64,000 nucleotides of DNA from Hormiphora californensis (taxonomy: Eukaryota; Animalia; Ctenophora). The notes under the pieces are model-generated. The model saw nothing but the letters and a program-made list of their open reading frames with translations. It did no database searches and was not told where the DNA came from. Position 1 is the stretch's first letter; each line of letters opens with the position of its first letter. The stretch lies in contig CM035353.1 in NCBI GenBank assembly GCA_020137815.1, positions 7,254,001 to 7,318,000 on the forward strand. Reading direction: 5' to 3'. Positions 15,895-53,565 of this stretch are shown here, one piece after another. The position numbers were made by a program, and so were the translations under genes.

Positions 15895-15989
<95 letters not shown>

Positions 15990-20450: not shown

Positions 20451-23400
20451 ATGGAACAGATATCTCGAAAATGTCCAAATTGCGGGGAGGCAGGTCACTC
20501 CACGATGGACTGTCCCAAACTAACAGGTGGACCCACCCAGACCATCACATCAAACTACAGTCCCCACAAGGCCGCTAAACGGAGGTCCAGCGAGGGTCTA
20601 ATCAGTGGAAATCTCAGGAAACGGCTCCGAAACGAGCAGTCAGGCTCCGAACTACAACGGAGACACAATTCTGACTCACGTATAACAGTGAAACTGGGCA
20701 GTATGTCAAATAGTTATCTGAGGGGTGAGGGGAAGAAGACGGGTGGTGTGACATCATCAACATCATCACGGAGACTCCCTGCTAACATGTCCGGTATTAA
20801 AATCAGGACTACCAATACCAGGAGAAGGTCGTCAGGTGACCAGAGAAGACGTCATGATAGTTCTGATGATAGTAGCAGGGAGGACGACCATGTGAGAAGG
20901 GGTGGGAGCCCTCCTCTTAGAGTCAAGGTAGACTACCACCGAGCGAACCGGCACAAGATGCTGGACTCGGGCCCCAATGTGAAGCTGTCCCTCAGGCCGC
21001 AGGGTGATCTCCGTCGTGAGATGAGATCGAAACCTCTTGATCCCGCCCTAGTACCTAACTACCGGGCTGATGATCTCAGGTTCACCATACCTCACAGACG
21101 GAGAAGACGGAAGGGTAGTGCTGAGCGGCACCACAGTAGTGGTGGGGAGGGTGAGGGTGACAATGAGGAAGATGATGATGAAGATGAGGAGGATAGTGAG
21201 CTGAAAGAGGAGGGAGAGGAACTAACTGGGGTATCAGACATCAAGAAAACCAAAATGGGTTCTGTCATCAGGTTTGATAGTACTGACGAAGAAGAGGAGG
21301 AAAAGGAGGAGGAGGTTAAACCGGTGGAGAAGAGTAGTGAAAAGGATGAAAAGGAAGAGACCCAATCATCTTCAGAAGAAGAGGAGGAGGGAGATGTTAA
21401 AAAAGATAGCTCCTCTTCCTCCAGTTCCTCTGGGAGCAGTGGGGAGGAGGAATCCGAAGAGGAGGAGGGGAAAAAGGTTGATTTGAGAGATAAGTATGAT
21501 GATACAGCTATTGTAAAGCGACCCCTACCCACCTCAGATCCTACTCCCCCTCCTACAGCAGCAGCAGCCCAACCTCAATCACCTGCTAAATCACCAGATC
21601 GGAAACGAAGCAGGAAAACTAAAAAGCCGTCCTCTTCGCCAAAGAAGGCCCCCTCCCCTCCCCCTCCGGCTGAAAGCAGTTCAGAGGAAGAAGAAAAGAA
21701 GAAGAAACCAGATGAAAAGAGTAGGAAGAAGAAGAAGTCTGGTTTGAGTGTGCTGCTCCGACCACGAACCAAGGAGGAAGAAGAGAAGGAAGATGAGAGG
21801 TCAGATGATGGGGAGGAATCAAGGGATCACACCGGACAACTAGCTGCCATTCAGAAACAAATCTTGGAAAAACAGGAGAAAATTGTGCCCAAATTTCCCT
21901 TCAAAACACGCTCAAAACCAAATAATTTCCCGGAATCTAGAGTACCATTTATCGACTCGCACTGCCACATTGATTACATGTTTGTGAGGGATCATCATTA
22001 CTCTTCATTCGCTGATTATGTCTCCCGAAATGAATACCCCCGAAACTTCTCGGGTTGTGTGGCGAACTTCTGTGATCCCATTGCGTGGGACTCTGATAGA
22101 ATGTATCCTGATATCATAGAAGAGGAGGGAGTTTGGGGCGCTTTTGGTCCTGCACCCTCATAACGCACCGCAGTGGTGCAAGTCCATTCAGAAAAACCTC
22201 GTTAGGGCTGTGTCACACCCAAAATGTGTGGCATGGGGCGAGATGGGATTGGATTACGGGCAGAAGGGAATACACGAGATGGACCCCGATGTTATTGTCG
22301 CACAAAAGGAGGCATTTCAGAGACCAGATGAAGTTAGCGTTAAAAATGGAAAAACCGTTTGTTATCCACGGGAGAGGCGCTGAAAATGATGCCTTTGAGA
22401 TGATGAAGGTAGCGAATACAGTTTCTTTGATTGCCTGTCTTTTGCTCCTTTTTCTCAAATCTTCATCACTGTTCATGAGACTTAGCCCTTGACTCAAGGG
22501 CCTTGACTCCTCCCTAAGCCCCCCCCCCCCCCCCCCCCGACTCCTCCCTAGCCCTTTATCCCCATCTCCCCTCTTCTCTCCACGATCCCCCTCCCTCGTC
22601 TCCAACCCCTCTGTCCCCCACATAATACATGTGGCACGTATATCCACCATCCCCCTCTGCCATTCACTCCTCTAACAACTCCCCCTCTCTCCCGCCCCCG
22701 CCCCACATATATCCACATTCCACCACCTCCCCCTCTTCCATTCACTCTTCTAACAACTCTCTCCTCTAGGAGTTGGCACCTCGGGATCACAAGATACACT
22801 TCCATTGTTACACAGGAAGCTGGAACATCGCCAGAAAGATGCTGGACCACTTTGATAATCTTTTCCTTGGAGTGACAGGTAATTAATTAAATTAAATTAT
22901 TGATCTACCGAACTACCGGCTTTTAGTTTCGGGTTTTTTTGGCCGAATTTCTGTTGAATAAACAATTATTGACACGCCATTATGAATGATATTATCTCTA
23001 AAGATAACTACAATAATAGCAGCTGTTCATCTCATGGAGGTCATATATGAAGTTGAATGAGTTTTCTAAAAAAGGAGGTTGATACATCAACGATGTAGTA
23101 AAATGTCCGCACAAAAACTAGCGGACATTGTATTTGGTTGTGATGCAAGTGGTCATTGTTTCGCGCGCGCCTGGAGCTGCACCTCTCGATCTTGCAAGCG
23201 CGCATGAGACGGAAGCGATTGACACTGTCAGTGACAGTGTCCTCCAGCATCGGATTGACTTTATTTATTCATTCCCTCCCTTATTCATTTTATTGTTATT
23301 GGTGTAGAATCGAGTTTCAATGGCCCAGCATCACCAACTAACATTCAACACTTTTTCAGGTTTGGTTACATTTGGTACGGCGTCAAATGTTAGAGAAGTT

Positions 23401-25753: not shown

Positions 25754-27450
<1,697 letters not shown>

Positions 27451-27895
27451 TCAATACTAGCTATCTGATCGAGTTACCATGTATTGCTAAAGCGACTGTT
27501 TCTCAATATCTGATCGGATGGAAGTTCCCGAATTCAATGCTGTCACTAATTTAAACTGTTATTTCACTATGACTATATTCGATAGTTTTCCCAATGCTTA
27601 TGTGTGCTTGCCATGCTGTGAAAATTTTCGTTTAAATTTCTTGATTCCCCAGCCTGAAAAAAGTTTTTTGAGATTTTGAGAATAAAATTAGGTCAACTTC
27701 AATCCAACTCAGCATGAAAAATAACTTTGGCATAATACATTTCCGCCTTCGATGCAAACTAACTTCAAGTGCCAGATTAGTACAATATGAAGCTGTCACT
27801 TCATCGTTGGTGATGCCATCCCCTATTATGTTTAGTGGCTATTATGTTTAGTGGCTAGTGTAGGGGTGGCCGCGTCACAAAACTTCATCGTGTAA

Positions 27896-30800
27896 TCATT
27901 CATCCTCCAAAGTTCCATAAACCCGCTCCTCGCCTGGGCACGGATTGTCATCTGTTGTTGTTACGTTATCATTAGTACATGTAATTGTAAGAGCAACTGA
28001 TCTCGTTGCTGCAGTGCTAGTGCTGGCGCCACTCGAATTCATAGCAGAGGTATGATCATTATAAATATGGTCCGTCTCTGCTAGATGGTGGGAAACAGGC
28101 CGGAATGTCTCCACTGAATCATTAGCAGGGGTGATGTTGTCATATTGAATTTTGTTCGCTGTTATTTCCTCCATTTCCATCTCTTCATCAAGTTCCCTGA
28201 CTTCAGAAGTCACCAGCTTCTCCCTAATCAAACTGACGTAGTAGGAAAGTTTACATTTCAGAGTCTTAGCTGCCGTCTCGGCTGATTTGTTGTAGATAAG
28301 GGGGTTCACTAGGGAGTTCAGGGGTAGGAAGATGATGGAGAACAAGGCGTAGGTTGGTGTGGCATCAATTACCAGTCCTGAGTGCAGGCAGCTCACCACG
28401 ATGAAGGGTATCCAACATAAAAAGTCCGTTAAAACTATCACTGTAACCTTTCGTTGGAGTTGTTGGTTCCGTTGGATTACCTGGTGATTTACACACGGTC
28501 CCGTAACTAGACCTTTGCTTCCCGATAGGGTGAAGATGGTGATGAGTATGTAGGAGATTGCAATGATCCCAAAGCAAAGGACATCTGAGAAAAGGACCAA
28601 CCAGACGTAAAGGAGTTGGGGATCTTCTCGGGTAACGAAGAATTTGAAGGAGCATACACCGTGGTTACCATAGAAACTATTACGGTGAGATCTGATTAGG
28701 GAGTAATCCTGGGAAAACATCTCCTGGATCAGGGACCGGATTTGTGACCACCGTAGGAACTTTCCCGAGTGACGCCGAATGCCTCCATAGTATCCCTCAA
28801 TGACAGATGTATGCATGGCTTTGTTGGGCATTCCTATAAACAGTGTGTTGTTCCGATCGTAACTAAGGCCATTTACAAAGAAATCCTCAAACTGAGGAAT
28901 CAGAGGGATGGTATAGAGAAACACCGGGAAAATGAGAACAAAAGCAAAGCAGATTACTACTTTCGCCTTGCACTTTGGGCTCAGCTCAGCTCTAGGACCA
29001 CGAACTAAATCATTAGAACGAATACTGCAGACCCTGATGAGACTTAGGATTGTCATGGAGACGACGGAGAGTTGTGAGCCGACTGAACTCAGCACTCCAA
29101 GTGTTGCACAGGGCCACTGTGACAACCATGTGACCTGGTGATCGCAATATGTGTGACCCAGAATAATGTCGTAGAAGGATAAAACCAATAGGTAGGCCCC
29201 TGTAAACATGTCTCCAATGGCAATTGACATTGTCAGGAATTTGTTCAGCATTATTTCCTTACTTTTGAAAGTCTGTTGTCGCATTTCCCAAACGGAAATC
29301 GAAAGATTCAGTGCATTCAGTGCAAAGGAAAGAATCCCAATCGCCCAAGCACACACCTTTAAGGAAACTCCATTCAATATCTCTTGTCCACAATGTTCGT
29401 TGCACTCATCAGAGAGGTCCACACAATCTAATGTTCCATCACATACCTGACTCAACCTTATTCCTTGCTCCATTCTTGCACTGGAAGCTGTTCCTACATC
29501 TTCGCTCGTCGCTAGAATCTCCACAATTATCAGCTAGGTCACAAACCGTGTCATAAGATATACAGTTACCATTATCGCAAACAAAATATCGGTTATGATA
29601 TCGACCTTGTTCCTGTACTAAAAATGTCAGATAGTCATTGTTAACAATGGTGTACACTTGATTCTTCGCTAGGTTCCGACAAGAGTCCTTCAAGACAACC
29701 CTTCCTTCTAGTGGACATTGTGTTGTATTGTCCAGGCATTGTCCTTCACATGCTATGTGTAGGTAAATCTCTCCATATAGTGACCTACAATCTAGTTTCT
29801 GGTTAGGTATGGTTATTTCTAGAGTGTCGTTTTTGCCAAACACATTCAGTCCAGGGGGATAATTCCACGCTTTGACTGAGTGACAAGGTGACAACTGCTG
29901 TCGGAGATTTTCTAAGCCTGGTAGACACCAAAACCCGATTTTGTTGATTTTCTTTCGACCGGGAATGTTGTTTGCAGTTGGAACTGTTTACGGGAAATAG
30001 TACAAACACGAGTCTCCGCTCCACAGGTGTAAACCAAATCACACAACTGGGGCAGCTCAATGTACCCTCCACGTGCACCCGGACACACAAAGACATCACT
30101 GCAGGTCTTGTTGGATTTTAGTCTGGTTGATGTCCCTGATCCGCATCTGGGCCACTGATCAACTTCATCCTCCCCTGACAGACAGTCAACCACACCATCG
30201 GAAATCCAATCTAGGGGGATTCGGTCCATCTTGTCCCGGACACCAAAGAACCTAGCACAAAACTTTCCAGATACTGTCAAACATATTGGATGGGTCTCAT
30301 CGGAAGAGTCAGGACAATCAGGGATTCCATTGCACATCCGGTGCTTATGGACAGTGCACTTGGGCGAGGCTTCAACACACTTCTCATTTAACCGGTCATC
30401 ACAGAGGGCCACGGCGCGAAGATCGGTACATATGACATGTCTACTGATAGTCGACAGAAAACCATCCACTAAACACACCCCTGCTACCTGAGAAACGTAT
30501 AATTACGTATACAGTCGGACCCCGATTTACCGGGATGCTCGGGGGAAAGGGTTTTGCCCGGTAAATCGGGGTGCCCGGTATTCCGGGGTAAAATATTGTT
30601 AATTGCCTATTTCGGGGGAAGATTATCCTCCCGGTAAATCGGGGTTCTGGTAAATCGGGGCCCGGTATATCGGGGTCCGACTGTAATTACAGTTGCCTGG
30701 TAACATAGACACCTAGCGCCGGTGTGCGGGGGTCGCGCCAGGTGTCTATGTCACCAATAATTACAGTAGGCGCTGCTTTGACGAGAATTTTGCGTCACGT

Positions 30801-33800
30801 GACGTTAATTGGCGAAAGAAGTCATTTGACAATCGCCAAGTTTTGGCAAGATTTGGCGGGAAATGGAAGCATAGAGGTTCAAATGTAAATTTTAGCAAGT
30901 GCTAAGAAGAAAAATCAGCATTCTGAAAGTTTCTACATACCCTGTCTGGGTCCGTACAGTTAGTTTGATCATGGAAGTTTGCACACACAGGATCGTACAC
31001 CTATAAATGCATAGTTGTTAAATAATTATTCAACAATCAACTACTTATAGATACTATCAACATATCGCGTCGAATGCAAATCAATTAATCTGTGTTTGGC
31101 GAAATATAAATTTGACTAAAGTCGGATTTTTTGAAGTTGTCACCCCCTTTTCACGCACGGCGTCGTATTTGGGCGTGACAGCCCCCACTTGCTCTCACTT
31201 TTCGGTAAAAAACCGCATATCATCAGAAAAGGCATCATTTTAGGAGTCCGTAAAGTTTTTGTTTGACGAAATTGGTCAAGAAATAAAGGCCAAGGCATGA
31301 GCGCCAAAAACAAGTTTCCAGCGCGCAAATAAAAATTAAAAACTCGCACGCCACCCAGTGGGGTGGCAATTTCAAAAAATCCGACTTTAACCTTTCCGGG
31401 TTGTTTAAAGCTGTAACAACGGGAAGAATTTATAAGGGCAACCTCCTCCCCGTAAAGGTTTATACAGATCTGTGTAGCTTGAAGACATTTTAAATTTCCA
31501 TTTCCAATGTACCAATAGCCCTCTCGACACATCATAAATGGTGTTGCGTACGTATCGATAATCCCATTCTGATGGTCGCTATAGTACTCACCATACCTGC
31601 AATGCAGCAGTTGGGAGAGTGATCGAGATACAAAGAGAAATATGGGAATTGGGGGCGATTTGGGAAAAAGGAGAGACAGATTGAAGATTCCTCAATTTGT
31701 GATCGGTACGATCGCTCCAGTTCTATACTAATACTATTTATAAACGCAGTGCAGGTACCTGTATCCATTGCACATCGCTTCATCCTCACAACCGTATAAA
31801 TTGCAAATGTCATCACACAGAATACTCCATGGCATTCGGGTACCAATAATGCTGGTAAAGGTGCTGTTCGCCTCACATTGTATTTCATCTACACCACCAT
31901 TCACACAATCAATCTCATCGTCACACCTGCAGCAGAGAATAAACGGTTTTCAAAAACGGTACGCATACGCATCATTTGTGTAACGGCTGTGATTGGCCAA
32001 CCTTGCGCGTCTTCTTGTAACGTTATTTCACCGAAACGTTTTTTTGCGACACCGTTTTTGACTGTATGGCGGCGCCATACCCCATTTGATTCTCAACAGT
32101 GCGCGACAGTGCGCTCAGATGGGTCGCGGCGCCAGACAGGTTTTTGACACTACAATTGCAGCTCCTTGCTTTAAGGGTACGCTAACCAAAAATTTTTTTC
32201 GAGTGCAGGGAAATCTCTCACCGTAGGGTTGTAGGCCATGCCAAGGAGACCTCAAATATGCAATTTGAGCTCTCAAGTCGAATTCATATTTTTGCTACAG
32301 CTGTTTAAAAAATGTCCTGTAAATACGTTTTTGGCATCTCAAAAAATTTTTATAAAGATAGGAGCATGAAAATTTGGGGATTTGAAGAGGACATGAAGGT
32401 GAATAACCACAAAAATTTTTTTTGCAATCCGAGCTGATTTCCGGTCCTGAGATGGATTTCTTTTTTTCCACTTTAACGCCCTATTTAGCAAAGTTCCGAA
32501 AACATGTGAAAGCTGTAAATTGGTGAAAAGTTGCGTCTAACGATTATCTAAGTGGCCATAAATTTTGGGCGTGTCCTTATTTGAGATAAGCTGTACAGAG
32601 TTTTTTTTGTGAAAGCCGTCATTTCAGAAATAAATAAATTCCCTGTATCTCAAAAACGGCTGATCGTAGAGACCTGAGACTATGCTTAAACGATTCAGAA
32701 GGTCCGATTTTGGGGGGGTCTTCTGAGAGACATTTTGCTCCTACTTCAACCGTTTTTGCTGTAATTGCGAAAAACAAAAACCCATCTTCGCCATCGTGGA
32801 TTTTTTGTGATTTGGTTTTTGGTGATTATAGGGACCCATATGGACCAAATAGTGAAGGAATTAGCTTGTTACACATTTTTCCATAGTTTCGGTCCTTTCT
32901 TAGCTAAAATTCCCTAATTACAGGATATTGGAGTTTAGCTTTTGCCCTTTTCATAGAATTTGTTTTTCGCAATTACAGCAAAAACGGTTGAAGTAGGAGC
33001 AAAATGTCTCTCAGAAGACCCCCCCAAAATCGGACCTTCTGAATCGTTTAAGCATAGTCTCAGGTCTCTACGATCAGCCGTTTTTGAGATACAGGGAATT
33101 TATTTATTTCTGAAATGACGGCTTTCACAAAAAAAACTCTGTACAGCTTATCTCAAATAAGGACACGCCCAAAATTTATGGCCACTTAGATAATCGTTAG
33201 ACGCAACTTTTCACCAATTTACAGCTTTCACATGTTTTCGGAACTTTGCTAAATAGGGCGTTAAAGTGGAAAAAAAGAAATCCATCTCAGGACCGGAAAT
33301 AAGCTCGGATTGCAAAAAAAATTTTTGTGGTTATTCACCTTCATGTCCTCTTCAAATCCCCAAATTTTCATGCTCCTATCTTTAAAAAAATTTTTTTGAG
33401 ATGCCAAAATCGTATTTATAGGACATTTTTTAAACAGCTGTAGCAAAAATATGAATTCGACTTGAGAGCTCAAATTGCATATTTGAGGTCTCCTTGGCAT
33501 GGCCTACAACCCTATGGTGAGAGATTTCCCTGCACTCGAGAAAAAATTTTGGTTAGCGTACCCTTAACTAACCGTACTGCTTGGACGTCTCCAGTTGTGA
33601 CGCCTTGATCACCTTTATAGACACACACGTATCTCTCACACAAAAACCGACTCGACTGAGACATGTGGGTAAGTGTTGACTCCAATGTCCCACAAACCTA
33701 CAAATGGAACAACATCTTTTAACATTATTAGCTCCAACGCTTAGTTTCCCTCCGTCACTGAAGCCTGAGATGTCAGGTCTCAGTGGAAAATAGCCGTGGC

Positions 33801-36800
33801 CTGAACCTGAGGTTTAGATACGACTAACGACTGTTTGCCACAGTGTTTTACCTGGTATGCTCGTGGATCATAAGGGCATGCTACATCAAAATCTGTAAAC
33901 CCAACAGCTTGGATTCGAATACTGTAGAAGTCATCCGATGCGGAACATTGAAAGTAGTCTCTATCGCTTCCGTGAAACTTGCATACCTTCTTCAGGTACC
34001 CATGAATTTCTTTTATCTCACAAACCTCTATAAAAATAATAACACGGGTTTAATTGAAATGTACCCAGCCAAAAATGGAGGATAAACTTCACCCGATATA
34101 GGAAATTTACGGTATTTGACCCCGATTTACCGGGCAAAACCCTTGCCCCCGAGCATCCCGTTAAATCGGGGTCCGACTTGCTTGACTAGTTATATATGAA
34201 CAATTTCTAATATAATATCTGCTTCCCTACAGTTTAGTAGCCTAGGATACAAACTGAAACTTACCCAATTCGCAGTACGGTAGATCGGGTATGTCGCATT
34301 CCTCCCACCGAGGATTGGTTGATGCCGCGTTGTAACACCACGGAGCATCTTCAACATCTGGGTTTCTGCAGTAATTATGATCTCCCATATTCTTCGTAAT
34401 TACATCCCTGCAAAAGTAATAGCCATTAAATACAAATTAAATACAAATTTTGTATCTTTAACTAGGTAAGTAAAAACTAAAAATAATTTAAACTACAGAT
34501 AATCCGATAAGTTGTGAATATTAGTCAGGTCTTTTGACATGATTAGGGGGTATGTATAATCCCGGATAGCTCGGATAGCCCGGATAATATATACTTTCGG
34601 GAAAGCCGGGATTATACCCCCTATACCCCCTATAGTATGTACATATCACTGCGCTGGCAAGCGCAAAGGTTGCCATTCCCCCCCCCCCCCCCAAAGCGCC
34701 GCCAGAAACGCAGTTATACGTTTTATGGGTGTTTTGGCTGAAAACCCAGACTTTAGAAGGCTATAGCGTGGCTCCCTTTCATCCATTTGACTTGAAATTT
34801 GGAATGTATAACCGGCTTGGGGTCTTTGACTCAAGTTTAAAATTTCAAGTCTTTATCTCATCTGGAACCGAAGTTACAGATAGGTCCCATTTGCCATAAA
34901 TTCAGTGTAACACGCATATACGCGCGCGCGCGCGCGCGTAGGAGAGACGCTTTTTGTAAACCATATTCACGCCAAACGAAAAGAGATAGAAACTTCTCGT
35001 TTTCACAGCTGGTAGATCTACTGGATGTGTGTGCATTAGTCGATATGGGGTCTCTTTTCATCGCCAGGAACGTCCTACAGAACGTCTTAAAGTCGTCATT
35101 TTTCAGACTCTGACCAAAATTCTTTGAGTTCAATTTAGACCCGGAAGACGGATTCTAATCGAAAAACGAAGACTATATCATGGAAAGAGAATTGTCTAAA
35201 CTTTCAGAAACTATATAGCGAATTTTCAAAACTACATGTATAAGGGTCTTAAAACGCGTCTGAAGTGTTATGACTGTTTAAAAATAGATATGACGATATG
35301 GGTTTTTTCGCCATAGCGGACTCAAATCTCATCCAATCGATCTCAATAGTCAGGGCATATGATGTTAGATTTTCGGCATAATTGTTATAAAGCTAATTCC
35401 ACTTCTAGGAGGTCCTATTGGGTCCCTAGAACCACCAAAAAAAATGTTCGCGATTTGGTGGATGAAGAAGTTGGGTTTCCGGGCCACGCCCTTCTACCTA
35501 TGTTTTGAGAACGAGGCAAAAAACGCCAAAACTGCGCTTAGGGGAGGAGTAGGGACAAAATCAAGGGCACTAGAGTGTTCAGCGTCCTCGCATTAGTGGG
35601 GGTAGATGCTGGAATTAAGTCTCTATCTTATCTGGTTAATTGGATAATTGGATAATTAGCTCTACGCATAGCCGTTTTTGGCCATATGGCTATAGCCATG
35701 TTAGGAAAGGAGTAGAGACAAAACCGAGGGCACTAAAGTGTTCAGCGTCCTCGAATTAGTGGGGGTAGGTGCTGGAATTAAGTCTCTATCTCATCTGGTT
35801 AATTAGATAATTGGATAATTAGGTCTGGGCATAGCCATTTTTGGCCATATGGCTATAGCCACTTGGGAATGATTTATCGACTTTTCCTTAGTGCCATTTT
35901 GTTCAGAAAAAAATTTTAATCTAAGAGTTGTGGAAAAATTTAGAGCCTATCTCTTACAGTTTTGGCGTTATTTGCGGTCAAAGTATGCCAAATCAGCCGA
36001 AAATGCCAAAAAATTAGTTAATTGGCCTACTTTGACCGCAAATAACGCCAAAACGGTAAGAGATAGGCTCTAAACTTTTCCACAACTCTTAGATTTTAAC
36101 AAAATGGCACCAATGAAAAGTCGATAAACCATTCCTAAGTGGCTATAGCCATATGGCCAAAAATGGCTATGCCCAGACCTAATTATCCAATTATCTAATT
36201 AACCAGATGAGATAGAGACTTAATTCCAGCACCTACCCCCACTAAAGGTCCTCCCAAACTATTATGTCCCTTGCTGCGCGCGACCGGATTTTAGACAGCC
36301 ATAGCTCCACCCCCTGATGGGATAGAGACTTGAAATTTGTTTTGTGAGGAGATCTTGTCGAGTTCTTCCTACAAAACAAATTTCAAGTCTTTATCTCATC
36401 AGGGAGTGGAATTATGACCGTGGGAAATTTCACAAAACCCGAGTGAGGGACATAGTAGTTTGGGGAATACTTTAATTCGAGGACGCTGAACACTTTAGTG
36501 CCCTCGGTTTTGTCTCTACTCCTTTCCTAACATGGCTATAGCCATATGGCCAAAAAACGGCTATGCGCAGAGCTAATTATCCAATTATCCAATTAACCCG
36601 ATAAGATAGAGACTTAATTCCAGCACCTACCCCCACTAATGCGAGGACGCTGAACACTCTAGTGCCCTTGATTTGTCCCTACTCCTCCCCTAAGCGCAGT
36701 TTTGGCGTTTTTTGCCTCGTGCTCAAAACATAGGTAGAAGGGCGTGGCCCGGAAACCCAACTTCTTCATCCACCAAATCGCGAACATTTTTTTTGGTGGT

Positions 36801-37916
36801 TCTAGGGATCCAATAGGACCTCCTAGAAGTGGAATTAGCTTTATAACAATTATGCCGAAAATCACCATGAAATTGACATCATATGCCCTGACTACAAACT
36901 TGGTCAGTATCTTTATCTAGGTAATCCCGATGATATGACGTTTTAATTGTGACGTCATGACGTCGTGAAGTCATTTTATGACGTCAAAATGACGTCAAAA
37001 ATGAAATTTTTTCAATTTAGCGATTCCATACTCTCCGTATCTGTTCTACTACATCTAAATGGATAAAAAATCCCAAAAATGATGCAAATTATACCAAAAC
37101 TAATTGAAATTAGTAGGCGGAAAGGTTGCCCTATGATTTGAGCTACCTTTGCCACTGTAACATTCACGGGCCGGGGTGCAGACAGGGTAAAACATATGCT
37201 TCGTCTATCTTCAATTTAAGGGAATGTATTGGTGCCAAAGGTAGCTCAAATCATAGGGCAACCTTTCCGGCCTACTAATTTCAATTAGTTTTGGTATAAT
37301 TTTAGATAAATACTATGTTACACGGCGAATTACGGAGTAATTCAGGAAACATGACCAGCAAATGAGGACAGCAAATGAGGACAGCAAATGAGGACAGCAA
37401 ATGACGTCATCAAAGCACAAACTAGGAACCGACCGAAACAAGTAAACAACCACTCAGAACTCGTTATTTAGGTCACGTGACTGGTTATCAGCCAATCAGG
37501 GACCAGTATTTCCTGGTTCGGTAGGTTCCTGGTACAAACTGTGTACAAACTGCGTACTTGAGATCAGAGAATAGGCGGCATGTGTGCTACTTATATAGCC
37601 ATCTGATGCGCAATTGAGGTTTGCTGTCCATATTTGCTGGCTCCCGGTCTCAACAAGGTACTAACCTGTCAGAGCATTGGCCTGACCCTATTCTCTGAAC
37701 TGTGGTCAGAGCATGACGGGTACTTACCAAGGCCCATGGCCCCCTCTTAACAAGGTACTACAGCTTACCAAGATGGGGGTAAATCTGATCCTTGGAATAG
37801 CCAGGTGTGTTCATTGGGTGTATGAGATAGCCAGTTCTGACAGGGAAGGCCTGACTTTGTCACATTCCTCGTTCCTCTATACCACAGCCCCTTGGGATCA
37901 TCGATTACCTTACAAA
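27896..37916 (-). CDS. kringle + Cys-rich/LDLa-repeat rhodopsin-class GPCR (GRL101/LGR-type 7TM, no LRRs)
   Basis: Phase-consistent exons 37916-37769, 34407-34265, 34027-33852, 33697-33573, 31926-31759, 31596-31392, 31000-30941, 30487-27896. Kringle (YRG...CQNW...HNYCRNPD...PWCY...WEECD), LDLa repeats ([25 protein letters not shown]), TM6 [11 protein letters not shown]7 [12 protein letters not shown] few frameshifts in the last exon. Confidence 0.85.
30512..30683. mobile_element. CAGTCGGACCCCG MITE (Tc1/mariner-pogo type), TA TSD
   Basis: TIR CAGTCGGACCCCGAT. Further copies at 44890-45046 and 61488-61659; fragments near 17590 and 34085-34178. Confidence 0.9.
30697..30760. repeat. short hairpin-like dispersed repeat
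   Basis: CATAGACACCT...AGGTGTCTATG; its right half is also present, inverted, at ~24325-24353. Confidence 0.55.
31119..31387. mobile_element. MITE, TA TSD, 4 nt inside a GPCR donor site
   Basis: AAGTCGGATTTTTTGAA.TTG.CACCCC / GGGGTGGCAATTTCAAAAAATCCGACTT. Confidence 0.8.
32175..33563. mobile_element. 1.4-kb foldback, TTAA-flanked with GG..CC ends (Kolobok-like), in a GPCR intron
   Basis: TTAA-GGGTACGCTAACC...GGTTAGCGTACCC-TTAA; ~600-bp near-identical arms. Confidence 0.88.
34647..35340 (+). mobile_element. dispersed repeat starting CACTGCGCTGGCAAGCGCAAAGG (possibly Chapaev3/CMC-like)
   Basis: 34647-35060 is closely similar to 63612-64000; the same start motif occurs at 63309. Confidence 0.7.
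35347..36894. mobile_element. 1.5-kb foldback with internally duplicated arms
   Basis: TAGTCAGGGCATATGATG...CATCATATGCCCTGACTA; centre near 36010; ~160-bp direct repeat within each arm. Confidence 0.88.
36246..36472. mobile_element. MITE nested in the right arm of the foldback, TAA TSD (PIF/Harbinger-like)
   Basis: The left arm preserves the empty site (GAATTAGTGGGGG, ~35753). Imperfect TIRs CCCAAACTA.TATGTCCC/GGGACATAGTAGTTTGGG. Confidence 0.8.
37088..37301. mobile_element. palindromic MITE
   Basis: AATTATACCAAAACTAATTGAAATTAGTAGGC...GCCTACTAATTTCAATTAGTTTTGGTATAATT. Confidence 0.8.
37423..37531. mobile_element. 109-bp hAT-type MITE
   Basis: TIR AGGAACCGACCGAA/TTCGGTAGGTTCCTG, 8-bp TSD G(C/T)ACAAAC. 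Preceded by a 13-bp tandem repeat (AGGACAGCAAATG, ~37355-37403). Confidence 0.8.
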
Positions 37917-38279
37917 CTGCGAAGGAAAGTTGGGATATATGGACCAGTTGCAATTATAGGGAAACACGTGATAATATAATCTGTAATCGGTTTAACGGTT
38001 AAAGTATATGGTTGTATATGGTATAATGGGTATAATATGCTTGTATTGTATTTAGTATGGAGAATGTTGGTAAATGTGGGCTCCACATAAAATTATGCAA
38101 GTTGTCTTTGTTTTATCAAATGCGTTATATTCAATTGTTTTGTTCAACCGGGCGCGGGGAAGGGAGGGTTGAACAAGGCAAATATTCACTCAAGTATATA
38201 TTCTATTATAATCTTAATCTTGCGTTATATTCACTAAATTTATTATATTATATTCTTGATCTTGGTCAGCTCTTTGAAA

Positions 38280-41200
38280 ATGTGGTTCGTTTGTGCTAAC
38301 GTATGTGCTATTTTCACTGCAGGTAAGGGACTGTAACTTTACAAATAAATTTAGTTGAATTGTGTACACAGTTCAGAAAGATTTATCAAAGAATAGAAAA
38401 TGTAATGTTTTACGTAAGCTCTTCAAGCTCATTTATGTTTCAGTGTGGTCTACAACATTAGTGAACGACTGCGATCTAGTGGAGCTGGAGGGAGCCAGGT
38501 GGTCGTTATTTGAAGTTGGCCTGCCGTTATCGCAACACTGTACTATACAAATGCCCCAACTCCCTTGAGCTGTACAGCATCATACTCGACTCTTCCCAGT
38601 TAAACTCTCCCACCGGTTTCTTCGCGTCATACAGTTGGTTGTGTTCCAATGATCCGTATTTCTTCCAAGCGTGCGGGCACAGCATGGCTACAGAGCCACT
38701 AACCCTCACAGGGAGCACGAACTCTGTGCGGAACAGCCGTGTGCGACAACCATTCCAAGATTATCAGTGGTAGCTGGCTGGAAGAGCAAGAGTGTGACGG
38801 TGCTAGGCAATGCTGGAACTATGATGATGAAGGGAAGGACTGTGGAGATAATTTCACGTGCCCCTCAGGGACACCCTGGTCCCTGTCAACACGTCTCAGG
38901 GGGGAGAGGGTTTGTGATGGTCAGTGTGATTGTACCAGCTGTGCCGATGAGAGTGGCTGTGGGTACAAATATGGGATGTGGTGTGACACACTTTTCACAG
39001 ACACCATGGTCTTCATTCCGGATGGCCTTTTGTGTGATTTTATAACACACTGTAGCCAGGATGAGGACGAGAAAGGGTGTGATACAGTTGATTTCACGGC
39101 GGATGATAATCCGTGGTGTATGCAGGGGCTGTGGAACAGGACGGTGCTGGATAGACACCGGTGCACGCCCACATCGCAAACATATCCCTTTTGTAGTGAT
39201 GGGAGGAACCAGGTATGTAGTGAGATTGTTACATTTACTAAAGAGAGATTGTTACATTTACTAAAGGGAGTGAAAGAGAGATTGTTACATTTATAAAGAG
39301 AGTGAAAGAGAGATTGTTACATTAACTAAAGAACCTCTATATCAGGTGAATTGTACGGACCCAGCGAAGGTGGTACTGAATTGCACCATGGGCGGCTATC
39401 CCACAGGGTTATCTCAAGAGGCACTCTGTAAAGGCTACTCCCTTTGTGATGATGGTTATGAGAACCTGTGCCGAGAAGTGGAGGAAGGATGTATAGTCCA
39501 CCGTAGTGCACTATGTGACGGAGTGACGGACTGCCCTTATGGACGTGATGAGGTGGAATGTAGTGAAGTGGTAACTCTCTGTCCCTCCAGAGTCGGGGGA
39601 GGGGCACAGGCCCTGCTGAAATCATGGATCAATGATGGGTATGATGATTGTCGTGATGGTGTGGATGAGGATGGTACCTTTGTGGTTTGTGGCTATCCAC
39701 CGTGGAATTATGAAGTTGAGAGGAAGTGGGGGGATTGTAGGGAGATGTTGAGGTGTGAAGGGGAGGTAGGGTGTGGGGTTATCCCTTCACGATACACCCC
39801 AAACACGGTAACCCTTGAAGAACCGATCAGGTATACATCGCCTTACTGTCTCCCAGGATTATCCCTTCTCAGGACACGACTCAAGATCAAATGTTTCCAA
39901 GGACACTTCATACCGAACCCTGAAACTGACTTTATCGCTGTACCACATCTGGAGTTAGAGTTACCGGACCCTTCTAATTATATTGATCCCAGGTTCATTT
40001 ACGGAGCGGCATATGTCATTGCAAAATGTGAGGACACCATCATTGGATGCCCTACAAAGGAAATCCCAGAGCTGACTTGTTCCAACCACCGAGATCGTCA
40101 CGTGTTGGCATTGACCAAGACCAACACCCTCACGACACTTCTCAGAACGACCAACACCCCTGGAAACACCCACTACACCCGACTAATCTACCCCTGCACC
40201 AACGGGCAATGTATCCCACTAGACAAGTTATGTGATCTGGTTGATGATTGTGGTGATGGTAGCGATGAGATGAACTGTGAGAATGGATTCCAGTGTGATC
40301 CAGGCTCCCAGGTGAGGGTACCACTGACAGCACTCTGTGACGGGGAGGTTGACTGTCCGGGTCACCAAGACGAGTGTGGGTGCAGTGATCAGGCAGGTTC
40401 TGTTGTCATGGTAACCATGGGTACTACCCAGTGTTTAATAGCGATCACAGTCCTCATTGTTGTAGCTCACCCGCTGGAAAACACCTACATCCTAGGGTGG
40501 CTGTTGATAGGACTACACTTGGTTTTTCTCAGTGTAGCACACTTGATACGCCTCACTGACCCCTGTCTAAATCATCACCCCTGGAGATGTACTAATATCT
40601 GCTGGTACGTGAGCAGTTTCCATAGCACTGGGAAAATCATGACACTACTCTCCTGTGCCACCATTTCTCTGTTACCAAAAAAAGTAAACCGGAGAGTTCT
40701 CAAAGGGCTGAGTATCTCGATAATATTTCTTTCTGTCATAGTTTCCGGAATTCCCGTGTTTTTCTTCAATGATTCCCTCGTCGACCGGGTATACATATCC
40801 AATGCTGCAGAACTACACCGTCCATTCAGTAACGGTGAGATAAGACAAGTCATCAGCCAGGTACTTGGTCGGGTAAAGTTGACCCCTGATCATGGTACTA
40901 CTACCCTGAAGGAACTACTTAGGTCCTTGTTTACAGAACGCCATGGCGGTGTGACCTTCCATAGTGAGCACCCTGGAGAGTTCTGTCACTTGGATTCCTG
41001 GACAGGTGAAATTGTCCTGTTTTTTGTTTTTCTTTTGATTGGTTGTGTAAGTATTGGTAGGGCTAAATACAGCTTGGCTGTGAGGTGTTTGTTGCATTCT
41101 GTTTCCTGTGTTTTTACCGTAGGAGTTGGTATACTGTGTGAAAATAACTGGTGGTCTACTGCCGTTGGAAGCCCAGTGGTTGGATGTCTAACTGTGGCTA

Positions 41201-41937
41201 TCCTCGGAGTGAAATATATTTTGCGTTCGTATTTCAGCAAAAAGTCACGTCATGCGAGGGTGAAACGAGTCGAAACGATCGAATTAAAACAGTTTTCATC
41301 AAGTTCAGCAAATGGCTTGACTGATCAAAATAACGAAACGAGAGAAAATGTGGAAATTTACGAAGAACCAGATGTCGAAGAAGATGTGGTTATTGATGAA
41401 GGAGCAGATTCGGTTTTTGATAAAGGAGTGGATGTAGTTATTGATGAAGGAGCAGATGTGGTTACAAATGAAGGAACAAAGGTGGTTATTGGTGAAGGAA
41501 TATATGTCAAAAAAGATCATGGATTACGCTTCTTCTTTTCATCTATTCGCTCTAGAAAACCACTCCATCGAGAGCAAGTTATTGATGAAGGAACAGATGC
41601 GGCTTTTGATAAAGGAGTGGATGTGGTTATTGATGAAGGAGCAGATGTGGTTACCAATGAAGGAACAAAGGTGGTTATTGGTGAAGGCACAGATGTCAAA
41701 AAAGATCATGGATTACGCTTCTTCTTTTCATCTATTCGCTCTAGAAAACCACTCCATCGAGAGCAAGTTATTGATGAAGGAACAGATGCGGCTTTTGATA
41801 AAGGAGTGGATGTGGTTATTGATGAAGGAGCAGATTCGGTTTTTAACGAAAGAGTTGATACGGTTATTGATGAAGGAGCAGATTCGGTTTTTAACAAAAG
41901 TGTTGGTGTGGTTATTGATAGTAGATGTGGTTTCTAA
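38280..41937 (+). CDS. LDLa-repeat membrane protein with degenerate 7TM and repetitive C-tail; paralogue of the - strand GPCR
   Basis: Exons 38280-38322 (signal-like MWFVCANVCAIFTA), 38444-39212, 39346-41937. Shares C.NDP..FQ.CG, Q.NCTDP and LDLa blocks with the - strand receptor. Short hydrophobic helices lack CWxP and NPxxY. Confidence 0.8.
41380..41925 (+). repeat. coding 24-bp (VIDEGADV-like) repeats organised in a 189-bp higher-order tandem
   Basis: GATAAAGGAGTGGATGT recurs at 41419, 41608 and 41797. Confidence 0.9.
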
Positions 41938-42300
41938 TGAAGGAGAAACTAAATATGAAGACCCTAGCATACTACATTTTACACATTGTGCTTAGCTTTG
42001 AATGCATTCTGTTTGTCATCAATCATTACTTATCGTCTATCGATAGCATCTATATTTACTTGCTGTATCATTTTCTTGTTGTACTCTTTTGTGGTTACAT
42101 AATTACTATTTAGTGCAAAGAATTTGTCAAAATCTCTCCCCTGCCATAATGCGATGGTAACGACTAACGCTCCTATTCAAAGCCACCAAAGTTGTAGGTA
42201 CCCCCGGCCCCGACCCCCGTTTGCCTCTTTCTTTACAGATGTAAAGGAGGGTTGGAATATATGTGTTATAGCAACCAATCCCGCTGCACGAACAACCCAC

Positions 42301-43113
42301 TTATTCCAAACAAGTTATTCTGGAGAAATACCTCCGGCATTCATCATCAACATATGCTTGTAGAGAACATAATAGTAACCTAAGTCTAACGACGAATCTT
42401 TAAAAAGTACCTTCATCAGTGGTTTTGCAGATCGGGACATCACATTTCAGCATTCGAGGTGATGTACCATTGCCGTTGTAGCACCACAAGTACAGCTCCT
42501 GATCAGGATTTCGACAGTAGTTGTGATCACCCATACCAAACTCTGGGTATAACTGAACGGGGAAGGATGGTTTGGGCCTTGGGGAGGATTAATCCCTGCA
42601 GCATTATATAACTGCACAAGAAAAATATTTTACTTTAGAACTTATACCATTAAAATTGCCAATTAGTTGGCATTTCTGTTATAGAATTAGAAATACACGT
42701 ACGTACATTAATTTAAATACGTACATTAATTAAAATATATTTAACTAATTTAACTAAGAATTATGAATCTTATGAATGAACAAGCGGATATGTTGTGATA
42801 CCCAGGAGTCCATAAATACAATACTAACTGAAATAATGTGGTTGTTGGGGGACTGATCCGTCCATTTTTGGCATGTTCTTCCATCCTTACCCTTGGCCAT
42901 CGTCCCTCGATAATTCAACCCCGCCAGGTCACCCAACTCCCGACACTCTGAACAATCGGTGATTTAATTAACTAACTGATGATTGTTCAGTGATTGAATC
43001 ACTGAACAATCATCAGTTAGGTAAATGTTTGCAGACCTCTTACCTCTCTTACCTTTTGGTTTTCCAGTTTGTATAACAATAACTGCACAAGCAATCAACG
43101 CCAACAGAAGCAT
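42301..43113 (-). CDS. signal peptide plus kringle domain exons (5' end of the GPCR, or a stand-alone mini-kringle protein)
   Basis: Exons 43113-43053 (MLLLALIACAVIVIQTGKPK), 42947-42829 and 42552-42411 ([18 protein letters not shown]) end in phase 1. That fits either a short terminal exon 42356-42301 or the exon at 37916. Confidence 0.8.
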
Positions 43114-44389
43114 TGTCTGATTGTCTGAAAGCGTAGCAAACAAGATGTCAAAAAAGATAAACTTTTGAAGCGGGTTATGGTGATTTATATAGCTATATCA
43201 AATCGAAGAAGACAATAACATCCAATGGTGGGCAAGCTAGACAATTAGAATCTCAGCAGAACTTCTGTGCCATAACAAGAGGCCAGCTGTGATTCGCCCG
43301 GCTGCAATTTCGCTAAGGTATCGCGGACTCAATATAATATAATGACCGGAGAGCTCAACAAATAGCGACTACTTGTAAAGATGGACTAAATATACTCGGC
43401 TCTAGTTCTAGAATCTAGCCAACCAAATCGCGGACTCAAATCTCAATATATAATGACCGGAGAGCTCAACAAATAGCGGCAGGATCAAGTCTTGGAGCTA
43501 TCTTGAAAAACTCTCTTGATTTGCTTACTGAAGAGTCGGGGAAGGATACGGACGCTGAGGAAATGTTTGTCCCTGAGTCACTACCTGTTACCCCGTGTAC
43601 TCAAGATCTAAGCTGTGATGGAACAATGATGATCAGTGAGACGCCGCCTGTTCATGATTGTACAGTGTACACCCCCTGTTCATGATGGTACACCCTACAT
43701 TCCAGCTGCTGTTCCCAAAGGTAAGAAAATACAATTCATACTAGTGTAATACTGCTTATAATTCATATTTTTATCTGTGTAACTGCATTTAGTGTTTCGA
43801 GTCATCGAAAGCTTTTCCTTTCAGGAAAATCGAAAAAAAAGAAGAGAATCAAGCGAGCTCGAATCCCGGCCCAAATGTCATCCGAGTCTGGGTTAGAAGC
43901 TGAAGAAGTTGAAGTAGACACAAAAATAAAATCGACAAGAACAGTGCCTCGAGATATCAGAAAGAATGAATTCAAAGCCATGTTAGAAGTGGAAAAAGAA
44001 AAAGTGGAGGCACTTAGGGACATCACAGAAATGCTGATGGTTATATATCAAAAATTTTTTTAAAAAATTATATTTTCTATTTGAAAATTGCTTGTATAAA
44101 GTTTACATTATATGCCATAGTAAAAACTAATCGATCACAATGTACTCGTCATCATACAAGATCATACACTAGCCCTGAAGAGCTGGTCTTTGGAGTTTGG
44201 TGTCATGTTCACATGAGCCGTTATTGTTCAATGGTGGTCACGTGACTAGAATATCATTGGTTGGCAACACCCATGTGACATATTTGGGGTGCGTGAGCTT
44301 TTTTCCTTATTGCAGTTTCATGACAGACAAATTCCATAAAATGGTAAGAAAAAAAGATAATTAGTTTCCTAAAGAGCGTTCATGACCGT

Positions 44390-44785
44390 TCAGAATCACC
44401 GAGAGGGGCTTAGTCTACCAACTGTACCGCAAGGAGACAGATGCTAGACTGTACTTACAAACACCTGGAGGACTTGAAGCACGATTTAGTGAGGAGTGGC
44501 CTTGATATGCCAATATTGGAGGAGTTGGAACCTTCTTTATTGCCCACGAGAAATTCAAGGTTACCGAGTCAACGAAAATTCATATAATTTTAGAACATGT
44601 GGTGCCTTTCATCGAACACACGGACACTCCACTTACCACTAGCCCAGTACTCCGAGCAAGAGCTCGAGAATACCCATCACACGTTTGTGTGGGAAAACTC
44701 GTACAAGGTGAAAAACATTAACCTGCCATCATATGGCCCACAGCTTTTGAAAGCTGTGTTAGACTTCAACTCAACAAACATCTAG
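44390..44785 (+). pseudogene. degraded Transib/RAG1/Chapaev-related transposase C-terminal fragment
   Basis: STKIHIILEHVVPFIEHT..PLAQYSEQELENTHHTF..WENSYKV across a small frameshift: an HxxxxH motif followed by SEQ..E..H. Confidence 0.5.
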
Positions 44786-44889
44786 TTATAAATTTTCCAA
44801 GTTGTTGTAGTTATATAATTTATAAGCAAAAGAAATTGTTCATGATGCAGTGAGATTGATCTATGATTAATAAATCTATGAGCTATTTA

Positions 44890-45046
44890 CAGTCGGACCC
44901 CGATTTACCGGAACCCCGATTTACCGGGAGGGTGAACTTCCCCCGATATAGAAAATTTACGGTATTTCACCCCGATATACCGGGCACCCCGATTTACCGG
45001 GCAAAACCCTTTCCCCCGAGCATCCCGGTAAATCGGGGTCCGACTG
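44890..45046. mobile_element. CAGTCGGACCCCG MITE copy, TA TSD
   Basis: Same family as 30512-30683. Confidence 0.9.
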
Positions 45047-45459
45047 TATTACGTAATAATTTAACATAATATATAATCAAAGAAACCCCTAGATAGAAGT
45101 GTAATGGAATTATTAATTGGAAAATGCATTGTACTTCAACTTCTCTCATCTCTTGTATGTTGCTCTTATCAATCGCGATCGAATAGTAAGATAACACACC
45201 GATCATGAGGACCGCATCGCAGCAACACCGAGAGACTGGGCCGCCAGGGCTGGTTGCCTATTTGTCAACCATGCCCTCTGATACCTCATACCACCCTGGC
45301 ACCCACTCCTATACCAGGTGAGGTATACCTGCTGACCGACAGAGAAACACGACTACTACATAGGAACGAAATGAAGGAGATATTGCACAGAGATAGGGAA
45401 GAGGAAGCAGATACTACCACTGCTATAGACACTTTAAATGAGAAATCTGCAATAGACTA

Positions 45460-48946
<3,487 letters not shown>

Positions 48947-50001: not shown

Positions 50002-53000
50002 CAATAAATTAAACTACAATAAATATTGCTCGAGATGGTGTTCATCTGAATAATAATCTAAACGGATCTGATTTATAATGACATTGTTTGATATGGTGTA
50101 TATCACAACAGTTTCACTCGGTGGCTCCGGTGTAGCGGGCAATGAAAAGAGTACGTGTTGTCAGATTCGTGGTGGAAGTCCAACTTTTGAGTGGGAAGGA
50201 TGTTGGATATGCGCGTGTGATCCTTTATTCTCACACTGACTGAAACCAGATTGAGATCAGACTCTATCAGCTGTAGAAGCTGAAGCTTTGTTGTTTTTTG
50301 TTAATCATTTATATCTGTGTAAATAGTTATTAACCCCTGCCTATCTTTTATGAGCATCCTTCCATGACAAACCAGTAGTCGTCCTTGTCCTCCATACAGC
50401 GCAACAACATATATTGCGATGATAAGATTAAATTTGTTCGTGTTTCGCATTATTACAATTTTATCAATTTTTTAAATTGTTTTTAGATTCTCGTATGCAA
50501 TCTTTTGTACTGTTTGGTTTCTTTTGTAGCATCTTTTCTGTTTTAAACTATCTTTATCTGTTTTCTTTCTTTCCCCTCCTTTTTCCCTTCACCACAGAAA
50601 AATTCACATGTTTCTTTCTTCAAATGGGTAACCCATTCAAAGCACCATTTTCACGGGACAGCTATGTTTGTCTTGGAATGGCAACAGCCAATATCGCATT
50701 CTTTTCATATGGAATGTCATTTTTCAAAGTAATTCACTCGTTTCATGTTATGTATGCTAGCATTTGTTATATTTATATTCTAACCTTCTTTTTACATTTT
50801 TCCCAAGAGAGGGTCGAGAGAGGGTCGAGCTAGACAAGCTAGCGTTTGGTTTGATGTCTTTTGTTCTTTCAGATTTTCTATTGTTCATTATTTTCGATCA
50901 GTCATTTTTACTTTTTATCATCTTAGTTGTTGACATTTTTTAATATTATCGATTTTCATCATGTTTTTGTATCCCACATCTTCATTTTGTGGGCCGGGAA
51001 AAGACCCTCGGTACTAGGCTTCCCTAAGTGAAAATTGAAATTCATTATAAAATTTTCGGTCAATTTGTATCGAAAAGAGAACACAAAAAGAAAATTTTTG
51101 GCGAAAATATCAAGTCATGGGTCTTCCTGGTTGCGCGCCGACAGGCGGAAGTAAATGACAAGTAAATTCTAAGACAAATAGCGCTGCCACCTAGAGTTGC
51201 ACCATCCTCGAAGAGTCCGACTCCATTATCCTCCTCGACCATCACTCCACCATTATCTTCTTCTTCCCCAGCAATTATTAATGCGGTACCCATTATACCA
51301 GCACCGAAACATGTACGGCCCGGTAACGATACAACCACTGCTACCGGCATCGGTACCAGCATTCTCAGCGACAAGACCCCCTAAAGGTCGTCCTGCAATT
51401 CCTATCACTGAAAAAGCCAGACGGCTGCAAGTGGCGGCAGACTTCAGGATTGGGTATACAGTACCCTCTGCGAACGAGGAGTTGGAGCTATTGCAAAAGG
51501 ATTACAACAGTTGCATTGCCCCAGTAATCTCTGCAAGAAGACTGCACACAGTGCCACTACAATTAGTGTAATCCCGGTATCATAATAAGTAATCATAATG
51601 TAATATTATTAGTGTGTCATACCCTATTACTTGGGTTACTGCCTAGTGCCTACTGCACTATGTGGTAACAGGGGTGAACCAATGAGTTAGAGTGAGTCGG
51701 CGACAAGTACTGTAACTAGAGTTAGTGTGTTTAGGAAAGTCAGAGATGCAGGGAGTAGTTCCGACCAGTTCGATTTTATCCTTCCGTCTATTTTGCACCA
51801 CCAAGTTCTGTGTTTTATAAAAGTCTAAAAGGGTACCTAAAAGCCCGCTGACGGAGAGCATTTGGAACCCCCGGCGGGACTTCATACACCAGTGAGACGC
51901 ACCTTCCTTACCGAAGCTATTTCCCATCCATCTTTGCATAATTTTGCTGTTTATCAATTTTATAATTATTAATTAGTTGCCCACAGATACAACAGGTTAC
52001 TTTATTTTCAGATGGGTTTGGATACAATGGATCAGCAAACTCCAGACCGGTCCGTACCTCCTGCACCACGTCGAGATGCCTCTACAACCACGCCTTTCAA
52101 ATACCAAGCTACTTTAGACTCTTTGACTGAGGAGCAGAAGGCAGCAGTTCGTGCGTACACCACCATCACCATGTGCAAGAAGCCACGTCATTGGCTGCGG
52201 TCATGAACTCAGGAAGAACACTTCAGTGAATCCCTCAGCATATCAAAGTACTTTGCTAAGAGACCAGTCATGTTTCCAACACTTGAATGATATGATATGA
52301 CTTATCCTCGACCGATTTAGGATTTTTTGGGCCATACAGTGATTGCGGATAGCGACAAGATCCGGTTTTTCTGTTCATACTTGCCCGACAAATTAAACAG
52401 ACGTCTCTCGCAGCAGCCGGATGTAAAAGCTAGGGAGGTATCCTGGGAGGAGTTTCAGGAGCGAGTGAAGGAGGCCGTGATGATTATGACACAGGAGACT
52501 GGGCGGCTGGCTAGAACCAAAACTGAGAGACGGAAACAGTTGGAAGGAGATCACTGAGAGACATGCCGATGAACTGTTTCAACTTGCCAAGAAAGCCTGG
52601 CCCAGGGATGAGGATCATGCTGTCCGAGAGGTGATGCTGAAAGATATTTTAGCTAACGGTGCCAAAGTGGAGGAAGTAGCTGTTTACATTCTCCAGCATG
52701 CAGATACTAAAACATTCAACACTGGTTCATGACGCAGATAATGGAGTCGTCTACAGGGGGTCAGAGCTGAACTGAAATCAAAAAGGGATGTGGAGGTAAA
52801 CGTCCTCAGGGTCCAACAACAACACCTACCGAGCGAGGAACCAGATCCCTACCGACCTGTTGAAACAAGATTACTATCCCTCTGTGCAGTATGGAAACGG
52901 ACCCCGGCCCTCTTACTACTACAATCGAGATCATCAAGGTACGGACCGCGTCAGAGGAGGAGGAGGAGGAGAGCCTCGCAGATGCTGGAACTGTGATCGC

Positions 53001-53088
53001 CCTGGCCATATTGCTCGGAACTGCCGGAGCCCACGTCAACAACAAAACCGGTACCAAAACAATCATGCCGGTACCAAAACAATCATGC

Positions 53089-53406: not shown

Positions 53407-53565
53407 ACAATCATGCACATAGGGACCAATCTCACATGTTAGGGTACCAAGTCTATAATGATAGGTGGGGGCAGCCCATGGGAAATCACCAAAATTATCC
53501 AGATCACCACACTACGCACAGTCCCCACATTTCTCAAAATACCCAGGCCCCGCTTGGTAATGAAA

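Follow-up and report, generated by a model that had tools for sequence, protein, structure and literature searches.

A predicted kringle-tipped class A receptor gene in the comb jelly Hormiphora californensis, from a ctenophore family with exchangeable front modules

The gene considered here lies at positions 43113-27896 on the minus strand of a 64,000-nucleotide stretch of Hormiphora californensis DNA (GCA_020137815.1, contig CM035353.1, forward-strand positions 7,254,001 to 7,318,000; the window), and appears to encode a G protein-coupled receptor (GPCR) bearing two kringles, LDLa modules and a seven-transmembrane (7TM) domain of the rhodopsin class (class A). Described systems that resemble it are taken first, each source being cited for the part of it that was covered. 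The Ciona LDLRR-GPCRs (Kamesh et al. 2008, PMC2396169) are a lineage-specific expansion of 14 members that lack leucine-rich repeats (LRRs) and carry 1-10 tandem LDLa modules. The window gene is like them in its LDLa modules, its lack of LRRs, its relaxin-receptor-like 7TM and its membership of a lineage-specific expansion, but differs in that its LDLa modules are interspersed with other cysteine-rich segments and in its kringles, a domain mentioned nowhere in the covered part of PMC2396169. The 7TM tree of the ctenophore family described below holds no tunicate or bilaterian sequences. With the type C LGRs (RXFP1/2, GRL101; PMC4079206) it shares an LGR-type 7TM, LDLa in the ectodomain and a similar segment of the second extracellular loop (ECL2) up to its conserved cysteine, whereas their relaxin-binding LRR domain and C-phi-P-phi motif are both missing from it; their LDLa sits at the far end, and that of the window gene directly on the first transmembrane helix (TM1). 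Extra CUB and fibronectin II domains are found in the type C LGRs of cnidarians and placozoans (PMC9545775).

Kringles are given among the domains of adhesion GPCRs (PMC12716839), and amphioxus adhesion GPCRs that bear them have undergone lineage-specific expansion; the ectodomain kringle is common to these and the window gene, but the former are of the adhesion class and the latter of the rhodopsin class (PMC2246102). In the class A data file of PMC11087051, the Platynereis dumerilii sequence comp420306_c0_seq26 combines kringle and LDLa as the window gene does, although in the first 400 of its 1107 residues there is a single kringle, placed between LDLa modules and not at the tip; the part of data file 1 covered has no ctenophore sequences. 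The window receptor is not described in the covered parts of PMC11797021, PMC11184263 and PMC11521371, and in the literature covered, which does not extend to subscription journals, neither a kringle-LDLa class A receptor nor the ctenophore family was found described.

We read 43113-27896 as one intact gene for a protein of 1312 residues, comprising a signal peptide, two kringles, an LRR-less LDLa ectodomain and an LGR-type 7TM, a reading that its exon structure and domain profiles make fairly probable. Joining the candidate exons by script gave eleven exons with all phases compatible and GT-AG borders at 10/10 introns:

43053..43113, minus strand: exon 1, ATG and signal-peptide-like hydrophobic stretch, ending in phase 1
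42829..42947, minus strand: exon 2, opening half of kringle 1 (27.5 bits and E 4e-06 for Pfam Kringle)
42411..42552, minus strand: exon 3, second half of kringle 1, ending in phase 1 (Pfam Kringle 31.4 bits)
37769..37916, minus strand: exon 4, first half of kringle 2, starting in phase 1 (Pfam Kringle 28 bits)
34265..34407, minus strand: exon 5, second half of kringle 2, ending in phase 1 (Pfam Kringle 39.3 bits, passing the cut-off)
34028..34264, minus strand: phase-1 intron of 237 bp, separating kringle 2 from the receptor core
33852..34027, minus strand: exon 6, opening the cysteine-rich core of the family; start of the family profile match, at model residue 205
33573..33697, minus strand: exon 7, cysteine-rich core, matched by the family profile
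31759..31926, minus strand: exon 8, cysteine-rich core that includes a degenerate LDLa-like repeat (family profile 39 bits)
31392..31596, minus strand: exon 9, cysteine-rich core, aligned to the profile within the joined model and with no stand-alone profile match
30941..31000, minus strand: exon 10, 60 bp, with the family motif DQTNC.DP (family profile E 7.8e-05)
27896..30487, minus strand: exon 11, LDLa-like repeats, beta domain of about 110 residues, two LDLa, 7TM and C-terminal tail
28291..29359, minus strand: class A 7TM with long ECL2, LGR-type by best PDB matches

An original prediction, made from the DNA letters, had joined the eight exons from 37916-37769 to 30487-27896; its GT-AG sites and matching phases hold, as do the phase-1 start of the 37916 exon, the phase-1 end of the 42411 exon, and the assignment of a signal-peptide-like start and a further kringle to the exons at 43113-42411. 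The intron of 3.4 kb that it placed within kringle 2 measures 3361 bp, and that between exons 3 and 4 (42410-37917) 4494 bp. A second candidate acceptor for exon 3, at 42611, is one base out of frame. An in-frame Met was looked for upstream of exon 4 and none was found. In exon 11 the beta domain is rich in disulfides, the two LDLa modules abut TM1 and the C-terminal tail has 130 residues.

Pfam was scanned over the exon pieces other than the 61-bp exon 1 and the 60-bp exon 10. The kringle, LDLa and 7tm_1 domains were found in these pieces as claimed: in the last exon 7tm_1 scores 41 bits (cut-off 30.5) and LDLa appears in three stretches, at 29.7 bits (above cut-off) and at 21.3 and 18.6 bits (below it). 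No LRR family matched a scanned piece, and the LxxLxLxxN motif is likewise missing from the model; neither GPS nor 7tm_2 was matched in these pieces, so that features of the adhesion class are lacking. The four kringle exons score 27.5-39.3 bits against a Pfam Kringle cut-off of 34.3, which the 34407 exon alone passes unaided. Both kringles have six cysteines and the YRG, CQxW, NYCRNPD and WC motifs, and the half in exon 5 aligns with the kringles of plasminogen, tPA, uPA, Kremen and ROR. They are 45% identical to one another, and the introns that split them differ in phase (0 and 2). Aligned to a plasminogen kringle, kringle 2 retains D-x-E, W and R-W, which we take to be the lysine-binding residues of that kringle, and kringle 1 lacks the second Trp.

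On the structure of the gene, the kringle 2 exons are very likely to be spliced onto the receptor core, and kringle 1 with the signal peptide is likely to be spliced onto the receptor. The single ATG of the 237-bp intron meets a stop after 9 codons and the first Met of the core is residue 275, so the core has no signal peptide unless it gains one by way of the kringle 2 exon. Pyrimidine content is 0.81 at the 37916 acceptor and 0.75 at that of 34027, and 7% of 424 background YAG sites reach 0.69. Over 37917-46000 on the minus strand, exon 1 is the strongest signal-like first exon in phase 1, with a hydropathy of 3.53 as against 2.2-2.4 for two weaker start sites, one of which is antisense in the repeat tail of a nested gene (below) and the other upstream of exon 1. 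Other signal-like exons, within 34676-36868, were set aside as lying upstream of the second kringle 2 exon, one of them inside a palindromic repeat. A search of 1.84 billion protein representatives with exon 6 returned three matches. Two were bacterial repeat proteins, dismissed as chance; the real one, P0229 (Pleurobrachia bachei gene model sb/3472353), has the same kringle half followed by exon 6 sequence, with 85% identity over 34 residues to the exon 5 kringle and 78% to exon 6.

The last exon had been taken as a single reading frame, and this did not hold: it comprises three overlapping frames with breaks near 29930 and 29463, and the uncorrected model stops at residue 640. We compared it, over 27860-30520, with short-read contigs from four runs, of which X1 and X4 represent one sample, X5 another sample and study of the same organism (A), and X8 organism B. 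The two breaks are as follows:

29929..29936, minus strand: frame break 1, one base missing from the window relative to the short-read contigs
29461..29463, minus strand: frame break 2, one base surplus in the window relative to the short-read contigs

At break 1 the extra base, at 29929 or 29936, is found in the full depth (65.3/65.3 in X1, 123/123 in X4 and 526.7/526.8 in X5). At break 2 the base at 29463 is absent from 53.8/53.8 of the depth in X1, 93.8/93.8 in X4 and 664.4/1196.1 in X5, where a further contig of depth 531.7 lacks one base at 29461. X8 corrects break 2 in part of its depth and has no row at break 1. One of the two breaks is in a homopolymer run, and once both are corrected the frame is open over 1312 residues with no in-frame stop. 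Since the short-read contigs from two samples carry neither break, we take both to be assembly errors; the neighbouring alpha-tubulin gene has two similar one-base breaks, which points to an assembly prone to indels. Several substitutions relative to the window are common to all runs, and individual residues of the model may therefore be wrong. Mini-introns were rejected as an explanation: they would take out residues that the family conserves, and the differences seen in the contigs are of one base each. Some contigs of organism A are about 87-94% identical to the last exon, suggesting close paralogues or very divergent receptor alleles.

From exon 6 onwards the model belongs to a ctenophore family of LDLa-bearing, cysteine-rich receptors, which we assembled from a 7TM search (386 proteins, best 120), a search for proteins of more than 1120 residues (366, best 120) and a third search (24). 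Among the matches listed there are 239 distinct relatives; precomputed Pfam annotation gives 7tm_1 for every one of them and LDLa for all except one. Each named relative belongs to Mnemiopsis, to Bolinopsis or to the 'sb' gene set, and P0229 too bears the 'sb' label. Against a profile of 137 relatives the model scores 1075 bits over positions 38-1062 of 1108, the match beginning at residue 205, with which exon 6 opens. Of the 207 positions that the family conserves to at least 90% the model retains 182, and of the 53 cysteines at that level it retains 51. Identity to the best relatives is 35-40% over about 1000 residues, and within the 7TM the highest value for any listed relative is 44%.

The core shared with Mnemiopsis ACHWQZ_G010191, ACHWQZ_G007220 and ACHWQZ_G019622, Bolinopsis LOC134818431 and sb/3472353 runs from residue 205 to the end of the seventh helix. 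Most front modules are attached at the same joint, and the window gene differs by its kringles and its ten introns. Five of the 15 named gene models have such modules (SRCR, F5/8, TSP1, Eph-like, and SRCR with TSP1), as do two unnamed relatives with F5/8; in P0019, P0004, P0020, P0146 and P0167 the module ends where kringle 2 ends in the model. The other listed relatives are for the most part single open frames called on contigs, and most would for this reason miss spliced front modules. The kringle-tipped form would be one more variant in a ctenophore family whose module swapping the databases already show. The architecture had been put forward as one not recognised among described class A GPCRs; its kringle is indeed unmatched among the 239 listed relatives, but the family's exchangeable front modules, the LRR-less receptors of Ciona and the LDLa-kringle sequence of Platynereis make it less singular than was proposed.

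Further searches looked for such proteins elsewhere. A profile search for proteins with kringle plus core, its power being at most about 0.7, returned 24 family members and no kringle protein of any kind, which makes it uninformative on that combination, and scans of metagenome contigs with exon 6 and with the 7TM gave no relatives. In the ESM Atlas the 7TM query found three LDLa/7tm_1 clusters with a kringle listed in none; one look-alike cluster has Chordata as its commonest phylum (score 0.93). The covered part of the M. leidyi GPCR table (PMC9525235 supplement 4) has no CRNP motif within the first ~255 residues of its models, which are often 5'-incomplete. A subfamily of the listed relatives (P0201, P0209, P0219, P0226 and others) has long N-terminal extensions built from a short cysteine-rich repeat, which closes with C..C.DYR and has no Pfam name.

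The top ten PDB sequence matches of the 7TM are all LGRs, the best being a C. elegans LGR (8w1z), RXFP1, TSHR, LHCGR and FSHR. In N1.50-style numbering of helix motifs, N1.50, D2.50, C3.25, R3.50, CWxP and NPxxY were located at residues 839-1181, with DRY reduced to L-I-R-V. The predicted fold of the relative P0001 (predicted local distance difference test, pLDDT, 81) has seven long helices and matches class A structures, its top three matches being RXFP1 (Z 29.9, root-mean-square deviation (rmsd) 4.5, 274 aligned), TSHR (Z 28.9, rmsd 2.3, 267 aligned) and the C. elegans LGR. The end of ECL2 aligns with the RXFP1 segment YYGTNGVC, and the model departs from the family at conserved ECL2 positions. 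About 15 residues separate the end of the last LDLa from TM1, and the spacing of the hinge, SDEC-x3-C, is identical in 227 of the 239 listed relatives; none of the 239 has three LxxLxLxxN motifs. Residues 637-790 are predicted to form a beta/disulfide domain plus LDLa (pLDDT 88.5), of which a fold search matched the LDLa alone (best Z 3.4, rmsd 1.2, 34 aligned), with no Foldseek hit at E 0.001. The beta domain went unmatched, which does not by itself make it a new fold. Judged by these comparisons, the protein is a predicted class A GPCR and a putative LGR-type sensor, and is not a member of the RXFP or GRL101 groups: of the LGR/GRL101-type 7TM originally proposed, the LGR part agrees with the nearest sequences and with the relative's fold, and the GRL101/RXFP part falls with the missing LRRs and C-phi-P-phi motif.

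Several points weigh against an intact two-kringle receptor of this kind. The splice joints come from gene structure and not from transcripts, and P0229, a model built on genome sequence, continues across the intron and is mis-spliced, so that it attests conserved adjacency rather than splicing. The second-half exons of both kringles run into a stop a few codons beyond their donors, ATTAAA occurs at 34054 within the 237-bp intron, kringle 1 is set apart by a 4.5-kb intron that contains an antisense gene, and a kringle is present in 0 of the 239 listed relatives. In Mnemiopsis two kringles occur in a secreted protein of their own, ML107912a (PMC9525235 supplement). As regards the frame, X1 and X4 may derive from the window's own source sample, some contigs are more than 10% divergent and may represent close paralogues, and the model departs at 25 of the 207 conserved positions, some possibly through further assembly errors. 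As regards function, none of the 210 relatives with a readable motif has C-phi-P-phi in ECL2 (C-S-F-K in the model, mostly C-L-F-K in the family), for which reason an RXFP1-type switch is an analogy.

Some of these observations would fit a receptor with kringle 2 alone, the exons at 43113-42411 then forming a small secreted kringle protein and the receptor starting from another first exon. Exon 3 read past its donor does stop, after four codons, the sequence in between holds an entire antisense gene that has a first exon of its own, and the two kringles differ in intron phase and sequence as noted. We consider this unlikely, since no other phase-1 signal exon in 37917-46000 is convincing and 42410-41938 contains neither AATAAA nor ATTAAA. 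It is rather improbable that the locus makes two products, with a secreted two-kringle protein, terminating a few codons inside the 237-bp intron, as the sole kringle product and the LDLa-7TM part as a separate gene or a 5'-truncated remnant. The core would then lack a signal peptide and could start no earlier than residue 275, and exon 6, whose phase-1 acceptor is a good one, coincides at its start with the family boundary and leads into a core with nearly all its conserved cysteines; these stand against ML107912a, which is such a two-kringle protein, against the ATTAAA and the kringle-free relatives, and against the eight codons beyond kringle 2, which are nearly alike in P. bachei. A short secreted isoform may exist beside the receptor, and this fits the one-gene reading too. 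ML107912a itself is entered in supplementary table 3 of PMC9525235 as a predicted neuropeptide precursor, with the sequence of a secreted two-kringle protein. There is, finally, a slim chance that the locus is a pseudogene, a decaying family member whose breaks are real in the individual sequenced. Its long branch, with the low best 7TM identity given above, and the ECL2 departures would agree with decay, as would the two breaks themselves, but the contigs of two samples are free of both, one falls in a homopolymer run, the tubulin gene betrays an indel-prone assembly, and 1312 codons run without an in-frame stop.

Two further genes lie within and beside the one described:

38280..41937, plus strand: nested antisense gene in the 4494-bp intron, a divergent LDLa-7TM family member (family profile 242, 66 and 28 bits)
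25927-27450, plus strand: frame that we take to be alpha-tubulin, convergent with the receptor gene and broken by one base near 27280 and again near 27340

The nested gene begins with a signal-peptide-like exon (38280-38322), has frame breaks near 38470 and 38700 and a short repeat at 39230-39320, and ends in a tail of 24-bp and 189-bp repeats. Pfam LDLa scores 47.7 bits in it, its identity to the model is 26% over 525 columns, and six hydrophobic segments are clear; it may be intact or a relic. The tubulin breaks are probably assembly errors. Two palindromic elements in the receptor introns, at 32171-33567 and 35368-36863 (arms 438 bp long and 100% complementary in the one, 192 bp long and 99% complementary in the other), are probably non-autonomous transposons. 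On the plus strand, a long low-complexity frame at 20424-22500 with a break near 22160 has no Pfam match, and its end, by motifs, is presumably the start of a TatD-like nuclease; 12036-19650 has what we take to be a VHS-domain-like start, together with a proline/glutamine-rich repeat frame, suggesting a trafficking gene of HRS/STAM type; and 52800-58240 presumably holds, again by motifs, fragmented gag-pol-like retrotransposon frames. On the minus strand, 3888-5627 and 8938-9471 hold two almost identical copies of the first part of an unknown protein, the longer without Pfam match, and between them lies a frame (5992-7299) that is presumably reverse-transcriptase-like.

The orthosteric pocket of RXFP1 is occupied by ECL2, which ectodomain and hinge restrain (10.1101/2022.01.22.477343). 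By analogy, the kringles of the window receptor would most likely capture an extracellular protein or protein surface, the disulfide-locked stalk would relay the movement to the LDLa pair and the short hinge atop TM1, and the long ECL2, once released, would switch on the helices and a G protein. Phase-1 exon shuffling would have brought in the kringles at the position where relatives have SRCR, F5/8, sushi or TSP1.

Ctenophores have hundreds of GPCRs (538 full-length models), whose peptide pairings were predicted computationally, without empirical validation (PMC9525235). A kringle-tipped class A receptor in a module-swapping family points to large protein or surface ligands and not to short peptides, and single-frame gene calls and fragmentary models conceal front modules of this sort. 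We tentatively suggest that comb jellies might possess a large modular repertoire of sensor GPCRs based on an LGR-type helix bundle, in which a ctenophore-specific disulfide stalk, with its own folded domain, replaces the LRRs and binding modules (kringle, SRCR, F5/8, TSP1, sushi) are plugged by exon shuffling onto a fixed joint. If so, the window gene would be the member that uses kringles, recognising protein surfaces that bear lysines or are exposed by proteolysis, and the family would be a modular system for pattern recognition or for sensing prey or partners.

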